From an archaeon (lineage in GTDB: Archaea; Iainarchaeota; Iainarchaeia; Iainarchaeales; DTGL01), in assembly GCA_029258755.1 (NCBI GenBank), contig JAPDKC010000010.1, forward strand, positions 12,534 through 76,533: a DNA stretch of 64,000 nucleotides. The letters run 5' to 3'. How positions within the stretch are numbered: position 1 is the first letter of the stretch; every line of letters begins with the position of its first letter. Positions 1,140 to 19,785 of the stretch are shown here, piece after piece. The notes below the pieces were generated by a model. The model saw nothing but the letters and a program-made list of their open reading frames with translations. It was not told the origin of the DNA and ran no database searches. The position numbers and the translations under genes were made by a program.

Positions 1140-2258
1140 TTAAAAAAATATGTAAAGCAAAGAAGCAATACTTGCAAAGATGAAGCTTGCTGGCAAGTTG
1201 TATAGGTAAAGCATAAAAGCGAAGAATAACGCTCGCGCAGCTTGCACAATGATCTCTCTGAAAACGATAAATTCCACGATGCTTCTTGCGTTTGCCCTAT
1301 CATAGCATGCAGCATCCAAAGGAATCGAAACTGCTGACCTTGCAGCACCATAAAGGGAATCTATAAAAAATAGCTGCAATATATCTCTTACAAAAATCTT
1401 TGGAAGCCAGGTTATTGCACTTGCTACACTTCCCACTTTTAGAACAAGTTTGCGGTTTATATCGGAAAATCTCGCTATCAAAAGGGTTGCAATTAGGGAA
1501 AAAACCAAAGACAAAGAAACAATAAACCCAAGCACCGCGAAATTTTTCAGTACAAAAATGAATATGAACATGGGCCATATGACAAATGCCACAGCTCCTT
1601 CTATGCCAAGTCCTATAAAGGCAACATATTCGCCAGCTTTTTGGTCAGAAAATATCTGCCTTATAGAAAAATTAAGTGGTTCATGCACATCTTTGGAAAG
1701 GAAGAGAGGTACTACTGAGAGAACAAGCAGTAGCGAAACAAAAGCGAAAAGAAAAGAAAATCCGAAGAACACTAGCATTAAACCTCCTACAAGTGGGCCA
1801 GCAACATTAAATATGAAGCTTATTATGTTTGCTAATCCTATCTCTTCACCTCTATATTTTTTGTCGCTAAATTTTGCGAAATCAGAGTGATAGCCAACCC
1901 AAAACAAAGAACTGCTTATGCCAGAAAGCGTGGCTAAAAACATTGGGTGCAAGGAAAGAAACTCAAGAGAGTAAAGGAGCACGTAAAAAGGCACTATGAA
2001 CAGCGTACTAAAGAATATCGCATGCTTAAATCCAAATTTGGAAGAAATCCTTGCCGCTGGAATAGCGAAAAGGGCATGTGTCGCACTTAGGACTGTATAA
2101 AAAATAAACACATCTTGGAGCGTATAGTTAAGTTCCAGGAGATATATAGGGACAAATATATTTATCATTGCCAAAGCAAATGATCTTATGGCTACTGTAG
2201 CATAAAGCTCATCAAGTTCTCTGTTTTTTAGGAAGTGGAGTACACTAACCCTGTGCAT
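1140..2258 (-). CDS. MFS transporter
   Basis: 372 aa, about 12 hydrophobic helices, MFS-like loop motifs (ARISSKFGFK, ARFSDINRK, GPLVGG). Confidence 0.85.
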   Translation of the reverse strand: MHRVSVLHFLKNRELDELYATVAIRSFALAMINIFVPIYLLELNYTLQDVFIFYTVLSATHALFAIPAARISSKFGFKHAIFFSTLFIVPFYVLLYSLEFLSLHPMFLATLSGISSSLFWVGYHSDFAKFSDKKYRGEEIGLANIISFIFNVAGPLVGGLMLVFFGFSFLFAFVSLLLVLSVVPLFLSKDVHEPLNFSIRQIFSDQKAGEYVAFIGLGIEGAVAFVIWPMFIFIFVLKNFAVLGFIVSLSLVFSLIATLLIARFSDINRKLVLKVGSVASAITWLPKIFVRDILQLFFIDSLYGAARSAVSIPLDAACYDRANARSIVEFIVFREIIVQAARALFFAFMLYLYNLPASFIFASIASLLYIFF

Positions 2259-2350
2259 AATTTAATAGTTTATTTAGAAGATTTTGTTTAATAAAATTTT
2301 ACTTCTAGGTTAAAAGAAAAATTTAAATCTATGCAAGCTTTTATTTTTAA

Positions 2351-3196
2351 ATGGCTAAAAAAAGTGTCCGCAAAAGAACAGTGAGATACAGGCCAGGTCA
2401 AAAATCAAAGGCACTAAGCACAATATCCGCAACGTATCATCTATTAGAAAGATATCCAGAGGTGTATGAGCAGCTTCACCAACGGCTTCTAAGAACCATA
2501 GTAAGGCTATCGGAAAAAAGAGCTAAAAAAGGCCTTACCCCTAAAGAGAGGCAGGAACTTGCCAACGCCATAATGAGCATGCGAAACCTTCCGAAAAAAG
2601 GATTAAGAACAATCGCTGGAAGAGCCAAGCATATAAGCCGCAGGGCAATGTATGATACAAGATTTGGAGCATTTCTTACAGATGCATATTTTAAGGAACG
2701 GTTACGCATAGAGGGAAAAAAGCATAGGAAGAGTGCAATAGCATTTATCGATATCGATCGCCTGAAACAGATAAATGATTCTTATGGTCACAGGGCAGGG
2801 GACATAGTAATAAAAAACATAGGAGAAGCTCTAAAAGAAGCTGTTGGTGAACTAGGTTTAGTAGGCAGACATGGCGGGGAAGAAGTACTCGTATGGGCTC
2901 CAACAAGCCCTGAAAAGCTCGCAGAAGTTCTTAGAAATGCAATAAGGATAATGCAGGACCGAATCCAATCTGATATGCGAAAAGCTGGAATAAAATTTAC
3001 ACAAAAAGCAACGTTTAGCGCTGGAATTGTACCCGTGTCAGGTGAAGAAATAAGAAAGAATTTTAAGGAAGCTTACGCTAAAGCCCTAAACGCTGCTGAT
3101 GAGCTGCTATATCGATCAAAAAAAGCCGGAAGGAACGCATTTACTTTCGTAAAAAGAGGAAAGCCCATTACAAAGCGTTTACTTAAGGGGGAATAA
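2351..3196 (+). CDS. GGDEF-domain protein (putative diguanylate cyclase) with K/R-rich N-terminal helical region
   Basis: FIDIDRLKQINDSYGHRAGD, RHGGEEV, TFSAG and AADELLYRSKKAGRN reproduce the GGDEF consensus in order. Confidence 0.93.
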   Translation: MAKKSVRKRTVRYRPGQKSKALSTISATYHLLERYPEVYEQLHQRLLRTIVRLSEKRAKKGLTPKERQELANAIMSMRNLPKKGLRTIAGRAKHISRRAMYDTRFGAFLTDAYFKERLRIEGKKHRKSAIAFIDIDRLKQINDSYGHRAGDIVIKNIGEALKEAVGELGLVGRHGGEEVLVWAPTSPEKLAEVLRNAIRIMQDRIQSDMRKAGIKFTQKATFSAGIVPVSGEEIRKNFKEAYAKALNAADELLYRSKKAGRNAFTFVKRGKPITKRLLKGE

Positions 3197-3268
3197 TTCG
3201 TCAAATAAACTTTTAAAAAATGACGATTGACGAAACAATTTTAAAGCTTGTCTGGCTCTAATTCTTAC

Positions 3269-3979
3269 ATGGAAAAGCTTGCAGTAACAATAGCCGGAGA
3301 GATAACTCTGAGCAAGGACCCTGGCGGAAGTATGAAAAAATGGCGTGAAATATTTGGTATAAGCCAAATCGAGCTAGCTGAGCATCTAAGGGTAAGCCCT
3401 TCAACCATAAGCGATTACGAAGGCGGAAGGCGCAAAAGCCCAGGTATTGGCGTAATAAGCCGATTTGTAAATGCGCTTATCGAAATAGATATGAAGCGTG
3501 GTGGAAAGATAGTAAAACAATTGATGAAGGATTTTGAGCCAAGTGAGGAAGCATTTGATGTGCATGAATTTTATGGTGCTGTAAAAGCCACCGAGTTTGC
3601 TAAGCGCATAAATGCTGTTTGTGTTGCAAACCATGCCAAACTCAAAGAAACGCTGATATACGGCTATACTATAATAGATTCTTTTAAGGTCATAGTTGAG
3701 GTTCCTGTACATGAATATATGCATCTTTATGGAAGAACTCCTGAAAGAGCTTTAATCTTCCAAAAGGTTGTGAGCGGTCGCTCCCCCATGATCGCTGTAA
3801 AGATTGGGCGTTTCAGTACTGATATGAAACCAGCTGTAGTGGTACTTCATGGCCCAAAAGATCCGAAAAAGGTTGATGAAATAGCTATAAAGATAGCGGA
3901 AAGCGAGCACATCCCTCTGCTTGTATGCAATACACCAGTCTACGAAATAAAACAAGCTCTAAAAGAATTCGAGGTTTAG
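3269..3979 (+). CDS. XRE-HTH transcriptional regulator with DRTGG-like C-terminus (archaeal COG1709 type)
   Basis: IAGEITLSKDPG..KKWREIFGISQIELAEHL..SPSTISDYEGGRRKSPG, RALIF..V.SGRSPMIA; ATG at 3269 chosen as start. Confidence 0.88.
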   Translation: MEKLAVTIAGEITLSKDPGGSMKKWREIFGISQIELAEHLRVSPSTISDYEGGRRKSPGIGVISRFVNALIEIDMKRGGKIVKQLMKDFEPSEEAFDVHEFYGAVKATEFAKRINAVCVANHAKLKETLIYGYTIIDSFKVIVEVPVHEYMHLYGRTPERALIFQKVVSGRSPMIAVKIGRFSTDMKPAVVVLHGPKDPKKVDEIAIKIAESEHIPLLVCNTPVYEIKQALKEFEV

Positions 3980-3986
3980 CTTAACA

Positions 3987-4676
3987 TTATATTCTTACGC
4001 TGTAAGTATATTTAACTTTGGGTTTTCCATCTTTAGTCAAACCAGCCAAAGTAGAGGATTTCTTTACATTGGCTTTATATTTTCTCTTCAGCTCCGCAAC
4101 AGCACTTTTTGCAGCTTTCTTTGATCCTATTAATAAATCGTAACCATTCTTTCTCTTTATCATTTTAACTATTTCAGCCAGAGTATCGTTTTTAAGCTGC
4201 GAGGCAAGAACATCCTTTATCAAATAAATGGCTCTCTTTATTTTTGCTTTATCTTCCGCTCTGAGCTGAATTGTTACCTCATAATAGGAAGAGCTTATTT
4301 TAAGGCAAGATTCGCAATACTGAAGCTTGTATTGGATAAACGTTTCGTAACTTGTGCTAAGAGGCACGCCTTCCACCTTGCATGAAACATTTAAATAAAT
4401 CTTTAACCCTTTGCCAGTATGCTCAGCTTCTATTGCCAGCGAAGGTCTTTCAACATCGCTCCACTTTACTTTACTAAGGATGAACTTAAGCAAGCTATCA
4501 GCATTTTCCTCCAACCACCGGCCGCGAACAAGGATCTTTCCACATCTTTTACATTTTGGAAGAATGAGCTTTCTGTCAATCCTAAGCAACCTATTATCTT
4601 CTAAGAAACACCTTGTGCAAAACCCCCTGACAAAAGGCCCTTTTTCTGTCCCGCATTTAGGACAAAAGCTTACCAA
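3987..4676 (-). CDS. nmd3: NMD3 family ribosome biogenesis protein (short form)
   Basis: Four CxxC pairs (CPKC, CTRC, CKRC, CESC) and YYEVTIQLR motif. Confidence 0.85.
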   Translation of the reverse strand: MVSFCPKCGTEKGPFVRGFCTRCFLEDNRLLRIDRKLILPKCKRCGKILVRGRWLEENADSLLKFILSKVKWSDVERPSLAIEAEHTGKGLKIYLNVSCKVEGVPLSTSYETFIQYKLQYCESCLKISSSYYEVTIQLRAEDKAKIKRAIYLIKDVLASQLKNDTLAEIVKMIKRKNGYDLLIGSKKAAKSAVAELKRKYKANVKKSSTLAGLTKDGKPKVKYTYSVRI

Positions 4677-19687: not shown

Positions 19688-19785
19688 CGCCGGGAGTGGG
19701 ATTCGAACCCACGCGTGCTTGCGCACACCAGCTTTTTGGCATGAAAACTCCAAGCTGGCGCCTTGGGCCGCTCGGCCATCCCGGC
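19688..19785 (-). tRNA. tRNA-Ser(GGA) with 14-nt intron at 37/38 (19734-19747)
   Basis: Acceptor GCCGGGA/TCCCGGC, G73, anticodon stem CCAGC/GCTGG, long variable arm, TTCGAAT; intron CCAA pairs with TTGG at 32-35. Confidence 0.93.

Follow-up and report, generated by a model that had tools for sequence, protein, structure and literature searches.

A GGDEF-domain protein with a basic N-terminal module and an apparently intact active site in archaea of the order Iainarchaeales

The GGDEF protein gene described in this study lies in a 64,000-nt stretch of DNA (hereafter the window; C1:12534-76533 of assembly GCA_029258755.1) from an archaeon of the Iainarchaeota (Diapherotrites, DPANN), and it is almost certainly a genuine archaeal gene. 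Judged by its sequence, the GGDEF domain keeps every residue class for Mg2+/GTP binding and phosphodiester formation, and we regard it as probable, if not strongly so, that the protein is an active cyclic di-GMP (c-di-GMP) synthase whose pairing depends on its N-terminal module. An archaeal diguanylate cyclase (DGC) as such is not a first, having been overtaken by a report from 2026 (Sidorov et al., 2026; PMC13725321). What is added here is a largely archaeal GGDEF cluster that spans the order, has an N-terminal module of its own and lacks the inhibitory site (I-site), and in the genomes of which no known downstream parts were found.

Catalytic Domain and Active Site

The gene and the parts of its product are placed as follows, with coordinates counted from the first letter of the window.

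2351..3196, + strand: GGDEF protein gene, an open reading frame (ORF) with an ATG start, 281 amino acids (aa) plus stop, with Pfam and TIGRFAM matches over cut-off
2351..2650, + strand: basic N-terminal module, residues 1–100, with a low-confidence beta-hairpin (9–22) and predicted helices 27–58 and 64–100
2651..2686, + strand: lead-in to the GGDEF domain, YDTRFGAFLTDA, residues 101–112, counterpart of the cluster-wide "RDPKF...D..F.E" motif
2687..3136, + strand: GGDEF (diguanylate cyclase) domain, residues 113–262, delimited by the Pfam envelope, model confidence and Foldseek
2750..2758, + strand: metal-binding Asp motif D134-I-D136, both Asp residues invariant in 23/23 cluster sequences
2765..2803, + strand: GTP/guanine-binding motif K139...N142-D143...H147...G150-D151, with Asp, not Ser, at the base-specificity position
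2846..2857, + strand: GELG (G166-E-L-G169) at the position of the RxxD inhibitory site, by alignment to DgcR
2867..2887, + strand: active-site hairpin R173-H-G175-G176-E177-E178-V179, a GGEEF variant with V at its end, the GGEE being invariant (23/23)
3095..3136, + strand: C-terminal catalytic helix motif A249-D-ELLY-RS-K257-KAG-R261-N, K257 being invariant in the cluster
3137..3178, + strand: extra C-terminal beta-hairpin, residues 263–276 (strands E263–268 and E271–276)

The Pfam GGDEF profile (PF00990) matches residues 113–262 at E 5.7e-25, with 88.4 bits against a cut-off of 23.8, and TIGR00254 matches with 91.3 bits against a cut-off of 37.4. A sequence search of solved structures returned 47 distinct matches at E ≤ 0.001, all of them GGDEF proteins, with DgcR (6zxb) at the top (E 1.5e-15). 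Equivalog cut-offs of NCBIfam were reached by none of the 18 models listed for the protein, the best being that of the SiaD family (NF038266), at 86 bits against 290.

A preliminary description of this stretch had listed the GGDEF motifs as present in order, and all of them can be read in the translation, an S223-A-G225 motif included, giving a cyclase that looks catalytically intact. Residues D134, D136, N142, D151, K257, and R261, which presumably have the roles established in structural work on GGDEF proteins (metal-binding Asp, guanine-reading Asn and Asp, and Lys and Arg of the catalytic helix), are all present and align to DgcR without gaps. All except D151 and R261 are invariant in the archaeal cluster described below, R261 being substituted or absent in some orthologues. 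The residues invariant in the alignment of 23 cluster sequences are F114, D134, D136, N142, H147, G150, G169, G175, G176, E177, E178, F222, G225, and K257, and as these sequences share 19–54% identity with the source protein, the invariance of the catalytic residues points to selection on catalysis. The last residue of the active-site hairpin is V or I in the family of the source protein, and mostly F elsewhere.

The replacement of the RxxD feedback site by GELG, noted in the preliminary description, was borne out by a gap-free HMMER alignment, in which GELG sits beneath the R-K-S-D of DgcR (native structure, 6zxm), so that the I-site is absent. An RxxD ahead of the GGDEF motif, where the site usually lies five residues upstream, was found in none of the cluster members examined. 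Hypr GGDEFs (synthases of cyclic GMP-AMP (cGAMP), such as GSU1658) and the Cas10 palm are of the same fold class, the difference being that the specificity residue here is Asp151; the Ser at the xxGD position that is the mark of cGAMP-making GGDEFs (PMC13725321) is not found in this protein. Identity as a defense-system protein (Cas10 palm) was considered and discarded, the sole PADLOC match, to Cas10, being at noise level (E 0.0095, 13 bits).

Predicted Structure and N-Terminal Module

The AlphaFold2 model, made with the 23-sequence alignment, has a mean predicted local distance difference test score (pLDDT) of 87.3 and a predicted template modeling score (pTM) of 0.71. Means over blocks of ten residues are 91–98 for the GGDEF fold, 93–97 for the extra C-terminal hairpin, and 67–90 for the two helices that precede the domain. 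When compared with the PDB using Foldseek, the model gave 128 matches at E ≤ 0.001, and among the approximately 40 matches listed all are GGDEF proteins. The best matches are active DGCs. SiaD in complex with SiaC ranks first (7e6g_A; E 4e-11, 248 columns, TM 0.59/0.62), and after it come DgcR, DgcZ, a phytochrome-linked cyclase, and PleD.

SiaD of Pseudomonas aeruginosa has no sensory domain, an arginine-rich N-terminus, and a canonical I-site, and on its own it is an inactive pentamer; binding of SiaC to the stalk stabilizes a parallel, stalk-mediated dimer, which is active (eLife, 2021; PMC8457831). The Iainarchaeal protein resembles SiaD in its length (∼260–280 aa), its lack of a sensory domain, its Arg/Lys-rich N-terminus, and the long helices that run into the GGDEF domain, and SiaD is both its best whole-chain structural match and its second-best NCBIfam match. 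The two differ in that SiaD has the I-site, and SiaC-binding motifs in its stalk, where the Iainarchaeal protein has GELG; their N-terminal sequences are without detectable homology, and the Iainarchaeal helices form an antiparallel hairpin in the predicted monomer model. SiaC (PF09345) was not matched in the genome, but the control also matched nowhere, so this says little.

DgcR (6zxb/6zxm; DiguCycDgcRLepto) is the best match by sequence among solved structures, aligning over residues 97–263 with a gap-free core, but it has a receiver domain and an RxxD I-site, and its equivalog model scores the Iainarchaeal protein at 73 bits against 500. DgcZ (YdeH) of Escherichia coli (4h54), the third Foldseek match with 265 columns, is alike in placing a small helical N-terminal domain ahead of the GGDEF domain. 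The N-terminal domain of DgcZ is a zinc-binding CZB four-helix bundle, and no CZB Pfam match was found in the Iainarchaeal protein.

The N-terminus was correctly described beforehand as K/R-rich and helical: residues 1–95 hold 25 K/R against 6 D/E, and helices are predicted in the model. No hydrophobic stretch, transmembrane segment, or signal peptide was found there (maximum 19-residue Kyte-Doolittle mean, 0.03), and the protein has no second Pfam domain, and thus no known sensor domain. The module itself gave no significant match in the PDB or Pfam. A profile of the region (110–122 residues from each of five orthologues), when run against 1.84 billion representative proteins, matched seven at E ≤ 0.001, of which five are convincing (E ≤ 1e-20, lengths 241–313) and all GGDEF fusions; the other two are fragmentary matches to repeat or coiled-coil proteins. 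The earlier statement that the protein has no sensor is therefore upheld as far as known sensor domains go, but is too strong, in that a conserved helical module, always fused to GGDEF and in its predicted structure closest to the regulatory stalk of SiaD, occupies this place. Between module and domain, the "RDPKF...D..F.E" motif presumably stands in place of the usual bacterial lead-in.

A polybasic N-terminus, as the preliminary description had pointed out, is present, but it is not special within the genome. A net charge of at least +19 over the first 95 residues is found in 12 of the 932 ORFs of at least 150 aa, and of at least +17 in 22 of the 932. These include apparent ribosomal proteins (by reading only), and tails of this kind were also seen on a PRK/uridine-kinase-family protein, a methyltransferase, two adjacent Kdo/RIO-like kinases, and an HTH (helix-turn-helix) protein (L134, L135, L138, L139, and L142; contigs C2, C4, C6, and C11). 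A poly-Lys N-terminus was observed as well on a RelA/SpoT homologue of 483 aa (L145; G000:C26:3362-4810, + strand; HD_4 and RelA_SpoT domains, TIGR00691 E 2.8e-94), which makes it the genome's second nucleotide-messenger enzyme of bacterial type, given that a study of two model archaea detected no (p)ppGpp in them (PMC8646023). The occurrence of similar tails on unrelated enzymes suggests that such tails are habitual in the lineage rather than particular to the cyclase, and it lowers the odds of a specific sensor at the N-terminus.

Archaeal Origin of the Gene

The source assembly (G000) comprises 1,212,838 bases in 71 contigs and is 93.7% complete with 1.3% contamination; the GGDEF gene lies 12–15 kb inside a contig that measures at least 76.5 kb. 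Its flanking genes, by Pfam, encode an MFS transporter, an HTH_3 protein, NMD3, and a beta-CASP/RMMBL nuclease, and introns occur in two of the window's three tRNAs. In intron mode, ARAGORN read the tRNA at 1027-1123 as tRNA-Arg(CCT), its intron being 11 nt long, and that at 19688-19785 as tRNA-Ser(GGA), with an intron of 14 nt; without that mode, they had been called "tRNA-Pyl(CTA)" and tRNA-Asn(GTT), respectively. As the former is an intron-bearing tRNA-Arg(CCT), it is no sign of an amber suppressor.

GC content is 0.36–0.43 throughout the window, and the GGDEF gene, with a GC of 0.415 (79th percentile) and a GC at third codon positions (GC3) of 0.32 (14th percentile), is ordinary for the genome; in codon usage, 52% of 256 ORFs of similar size lie farther from the genome mean. 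Full-length orthologues from metagenome collections share 45–57% identity over 84–96% of the length, and the matching public contigs bear the titles "Candidatus Iainarchaeum archaeon," "Candidatus Diapherotrites archaeon," or "uncultured archaeon." Orthologues are also found in four related genomes, at 54% (G001), 49% (G010), 47–49% (G006), and 32–34% (G012) identity, and in all of these, as in G000, the GGDEF gene is followed by the HTH gene on the same strand and NMD3 on the opposite strand, an order shared across two genera. The nearest named bacterial matches cover the domain only, at no more than 42% identity.

Contigs from two studies support the junctions. A 2,715-nt contig from one study spans 1900–3845 with 1 difference, and a 5,069-nt contig from another study spans all of 1900–4300 with 18 differences; both bridge the junctions of the GGDEF gene with the MFS and HTH genes, and one of the two may come from the source sample. 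The gene, which the preliminary description had reported in an archaeon, is thus truly archaeal (DPANN, Iainarchaeota). That description had also raised the prospect of a chimeric assembly, or of a near-identical bacterial gene with no archaeal homologs; what was found are bridging contigs, archaeal orthologues, and distant bacterial matches. Taken together, the archaeal flanks, conserved locus, composition, promoter, and bridging contigs exclude contamination, chimerism, and recent transfer within reach of the methods used.

Promoter and Transcription

2322..2327, + strand: TATA-like box TTTAAA, at -29..-24 from the GGDEF ATG, implying a leaderless or near-leaderless transcript

The leaderless promoter proposed beforehand for the GGDEF gene agrees with both its orthologues and the genome at large. 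An AT-rich box ends 22–24 nt before the ATG in five of five orthologues, and likewise upstream of the HTH gene. Genome-wide, among 919 long ORFs, TATA-like hexamers peak at -32..-28 from ATG starts, with 114 in the -30/-29 bin against mostly 20–40 away from the peak, and in 198 of these ORFs such a hexamer starts between -33 and -26. Boxes at equal distance in the orthologues, together with the genome-wide peak, suggest that TTTAAA is more than chance. The peak points to widespread leaderless transcription in the source genome, a habit that the GGDEF gene would appear to follow.

In one metatranscriptome library, contigs cover 2250–2504 and 2733–3284. RNA libraries may contain DNA, and stretches without contig cover carry no meaning, so this is a weak hint only that the GGDEF gene is expressed.

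Distribution and Phylogeny

GGDEF matches over cut-off were found in 69 of the 196 genomes of the order, in 31 of its 73 genera and 22 of its 55 high-quality genomes, with one or two copies each. The phylum as a whole has 215 genomes, and the 19 that lie outside the order gave no match.

For phylogenetic analysis, 157 non-identical GGDEF domains were used (42 archaeal rows, 73 named bacterial loci, and 42 unnamed metagenome proteins), leaving out exact duplicates and domains with fewer than 130 matched profile positions; the bacterial rows, picked by pattern scan, are a small and biased sample. The family of the source protein (10 rows) forms a clade with a Shimodaira-Hasegawa-like approximate likelihood ratio test (SH-aLRT) value of 99, and it lies within a set of 32 rows, of which 31 are archaeal and one, on a long branch, is bacterial. 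A further branch with an SH-aLRT of 99 divides this set from the remaining 125 rows, which are mostly bacterial and include 11 archaeal ones. Two separate origins of GGDEF in the order, as drawn in the free tree, were dropped as a proposal, since a tree with all 42 archaeal rows in one clade, a group named after the tree was seen, was not rejected by the approximately unbiased (AU) test (p-AU 0.455), and for this reason no claim is made on the number of origins.

A profile of the 23-sequence cluster was run against a collection of 5.8 billion proteins, in which 8,000 word-sharing candidates were scored, and it separated cluster-type proteins (148–316 bits) from ordinary or bacterial GGDEFs (at most 137). 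Every named cluster-type match is "Candidatus Diapherotrites archaeon." The N-terminal region is basic in every cluster member examined. Most of them have an N-terminal region of ∼90–125 aa with 20–34 K/R and 4–13 D/E, ranges that were read from first-ATG starts and have a few rows outside them, and the members examined carry an RDPKF-like motif directly ahead of the domain.

A sister subfamily of the source protein's family (G012 L006:1240-2199, P0049, and P0051) has K139 replaced by His, D143 by Thr or Ala, and D151 by Asn, with an insertion of 25–35 residues after the active-site hairpin; the N-terminal module and GGEE are kept. Its members may use a different substrate or no longer be active.

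A second kind of GGDEF protein was also observed in the order (family f31 and others; L101–L106, in G042, G058, G061, G062, G064, and G065). These proteins are 260–380 aa long, with N-termini of ∼165–185 aa that contain hydrophobic stretches and much stronger Pfam matches (E 1e-36 to 1e-41), and the f31-type sequences were placed among bacterial ones in the free tree.

Neighboring Genes

3239..3245, + strand: TATA-like box TTTTAAA, 30 nt before the ATG of the HTH gene
3269..3979, + strand: HTH_3 protein (Pfam), 236 aa from the MEKLAV start, separate from the enzyme
3987-4676, - strand: NMD3, the gene after the HTH_3 protein

The gene following the GGDEF gene was taken at the outset for a regulator, and it does encode an HTH_3 protein, with its own TTTTAAA box and so its own promoter. 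This protein is 69–90% identical across 10 sequences, a conservation well above that of the GGDEF gene, and it is accompanied by NMD3 at each of the loci read. Its C-terminal domain of ∼150 aa gave no Pfam or PDB match, sequence matches in the PDB being confined to the HTH. An obligate partnership with the GGDEF protein, or a role as its receptor, was rejected for the HTH_3 protein in view of this separate box and of its presence in five of five searched relatives that lack GGDEF, in three of which (G003, G004, and G008) the locus was read and the gene adjoins NMD3.

Against this rejection, two distant members of the cluster (L018 and L034) also have the GGDEF gene next to the HTH-NMD3 block or no more than ∼2 kb from it, which is not functional evidence. 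Elsewhere, its neighbors include diphthamide synthase, GATase, and amino-acid kinase genes in family f30, and GatD in families f21 and f6. Among the flanking ORFs of 27 loci, neither a partner gene conserved across the cluster nor a secretion-related neighbor was found.

Phosphodiesterases and Receptors in the Order

No EAL match over cut-off was found in the 196 genomes of the order, one match being sub-threshold, and PilZ was likewise found in none of the 196. HD_5 was present in 20 of the 196 genomes at E ≤ 0.001, in 17 of them over cut-off, and in none of the 12 other genomes of the source family. An association of HD_5 with GGDEF was looked for and none was seen, with 8 of the 20 HD_5-positive genomes being GGDEF-positive against ∼7 expected by chance. 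A known phosphodiesterase domain was not found in 61 of the 69 GGDEF-positive genomes.

One protein of the source genome, P0054 (L141; G000:C8:32295-33230, - strand; 312 aa), was observed to have an H..H...HD pattern and to start with a basic "MPAKKP" as in GGDEF orthologues. No Pfam or PDB match assigns it to a family, and cas3_HD matches at E 0.015 only. A search of 61 genomes showed it in G000 and G001 alone (81% identity), apart from a weak match in G033, and it was rejected as a consistent phosphodiesterase partner, its distribution not tracking that of the GGDEF gene.

Comparison With Previous Work

A census from 2018 accepted a single archaeal GGDEF domain, that of Methanocella arvoryzae, and suspected contamination in other matches (PMC5847659), and a BLAST survey from 2021 gave more than 300 archaeal matches, many of them from Asgard and DPANN archaea (PMC8646023). 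According to Sidorov et al. (Molecular Microbiology, September 2026; PMC13725321), GGDEF proteins from archaeal isolates, and others with short N-termini from DPANN metagenome-assembled genomes (MAGs), show DGC activity in Salmonella and E. coli assays, so the preliminary statement that no archaeal DGC had been characterized is out of date. The same paper examined 20 proteins from archaeal MAGs, mainly DPANN and "class II," several of which are GGDEF-only or have short N-termini and keep GG(D/E)EF and the signature residues, and three of the seven MAG proteins cloned gave a catalysis-dependent signal in a Vc2 c-di-GMP riboswitch assay (PMC13725321). Catalysis-independent phenotypes were also reported for several archaeal GGDEF proteins, and occurrence, phosphodiesterases, receptors, and origin were named as open questions (PMC13725321).

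The DPANN MAG proteins of that study, such as KHO53289.1 and KHO53915.1, are like the Iainarchaeal protein in being GGDEF-only or having a short N-terminus. Unlike the present analysis, PMC13725321 reports, in its main text, no order-wide census, basic N-terminal module, or survey of receptors and phosphodiesterases. Four public accessions of cluster members are absent from that main text, the full protein list of the paper being given in a figure and supplements. Within the collection of papers searched, none was found linking Diapherotrites with GGDEF, or Iainarchae with diguanylate cyclase.

Proposed Function of the GGDEF Protein

In the GGDEF family each domain binds one GTP and two domains must meet for activity, as is generally understood and as described in work on SiaD (PMC8457831). 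If the Iainarchaeal protein is, as we consider probable, an active c-di-GMP synthase, two protomers with one GTP each would come together to make c-di-GMP, and the N-terminal helical hairpin would mediate or gate this pairing, as the stalk does in SiaD. Pairing could come about through self-association, in which case it would be constitutive, or through binding of a partner or polyanion. The lack of an I-site suggests that there is no classical feedback by the product, and the output would then be set by the gene's own leaderless promoter and the N-terminal module.

Several observations weigh against a c-di-GMP synthase of this kind. Dimerization through the N-terminus is conjecture on our part, and the polybasic tail may be a general habit of the lineage and not a specific regulator. 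The preliminary description had seen no EAL, HD-GYP, or PilZ partner in the window, and this extends to the whole of the 93.7%-complete genome, in which EAL, HD_5 (HD-GYP-type), PilZ, MshEN, and DUF520/YajQ gave no match, nor did the GEMM-II riboswitch (RF01786); with no known phosphodiesterase or receptor domains, a complete c-di-GMP pathway cannot be drawn. The GEMM-I riboswitch (RF01051) also gave no match in the genome, but its control matched nowhere either, so this says little. The gene is dispensable, as 7 of the 12 other genomes of the source family are without a GGDEF match, and the HTH-NMD3 block occurs without it in three loci read. Within the protein, the active-site motif ends in V instead of F and the bacterial-type lead-in has diverged, and the loss of K139, D143, and D151 in the sister subfamily indicates that catalysis is not conserved everywhere. 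The strain-level differences seen within the ORF in contigs from two studies, at 2463, 2513, and 3101 (V38A, E55K, and E251K), are all three non-synonymous, which counts weakly, three being too few to interpret. Outside this lineage, Haloferax volcanii and Sulfolobus acidocaldarius were examined for c-di-GMP and neither yielded a signal (PMC8646023), and according to PMC13725321 the compound has so far been detected in no archaeon; nor, in that study, was any MAG protein consistent across all three assays.

It is possible, if unlikely, that the GGDEF domain is catalytic but that its physiological product is not c-di-GMP, being another cyclic or linear dinucleotide, or that the protein mainly hydrolyzes or binds GTP. 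Such a role would fit with the failure to find a known c-di-GMP receptor or phosphodiesterase in the genome, with the atypical lead-in motif and final motif residue, and with the Asn at the base-specificity position of the sister subfamily, a position that drifts within the lineage. The guanine-reading pair N142 and D151 is kept in the source protein, however, with no Ser at xxGD, and all matches by sequence and fold are c-di-GMP synthases.

A mainly non-catalytic role, in which a GTP-binding or scaffold protein is tethered to nucleic acid or the ribosome by its basic N-terminus, is distinctly unlikely. The catalysis-independent phenotypes of archaeal GGDEF proteins (PMC13725321) lend it some support, as do the persistence of the degenerate sister subfamily with its N-terminal module intact and the translation-related housekeeping neighbors seen across the cluster (NMD3, diphthamide synthase, and GatD). 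Neighborhood is weak evidence here, since DPANN genomes are rich in translation genes anyway and no neighbor is common to the whole cluster, and the invariance of catalytic residues in 23 diverged sequences is hard to explain without catalysis.

The preliminary description had also offered an unregulated effector acting on a host, for which no support was found, and the idea that a presumed episymbiont directs the cyclase, or what it makes, at its host or a neighboring cell draws on the small 1.2-Mb DPANN genome and its lack of a detected cognate receptor or degrading enzyme. We consider it improbable: the protein has no signal peptide or transmembrane segment; its gene, which occurs only patchily in the genus, stands in housekeeping surroundings under a native promoter and has no secretion-related neighbor in any of the 27 loci examined; and the symbiotic lifestyle is itself presumed.

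Equally a long shot is that the N-terminal module is a sensor of polyanions (RNA, DNA, or the ribosome) that joins two cyclase domains, the c-di-GMP being read by novel receptors or passed to a host. Were this so, the protein would be an archaeal GGDEF analogue of nucleic-acid-activated cyclases, following the logic of cGAS and Cas10, and the receptor would be of a kind new to all domains of life; the similar tails on kinases and on the RelA/SpoT homologue would then fit a shared targeting principle for signaling enzymes in reduced archaea.

A bacterial gene, present through contamination, a chimeric contig, or very recent transfer, is scarcely credible, for even though GGDEF is an overwhelmingly bacterial domain and the census of 2018 was suspicious of such archaeal matches (PMC5847659), the gene lies deep in an archaeal contig, at a locus conserved in five genomes of two genera, with bridging contigs from two studies, native composition, and an archaeal promoter, and its domain-only bacterial matches are set apart by the SH-aLRT 99 branch from the bacterial sequences sampled.

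Implications for Archaeal Signaling

Whether Archaea use c-di-GMP signaling is a question of current interest, experiments on it having first been published in September 2026 (PMC13725321). The locus and census presented here offer a concrete handle on it, as about a third of the genomes of one DPANN order carry GGDEF. Should the enzyme prove inactive, some other reason must be sought for why its catalytic residues are invariant. Should it prove active, the c-di-GMP of these organisms must be sensed and removed by components not yet described, and with genomes of ∼1.2 Mb an exhaustive screen for receptors would be feasible.

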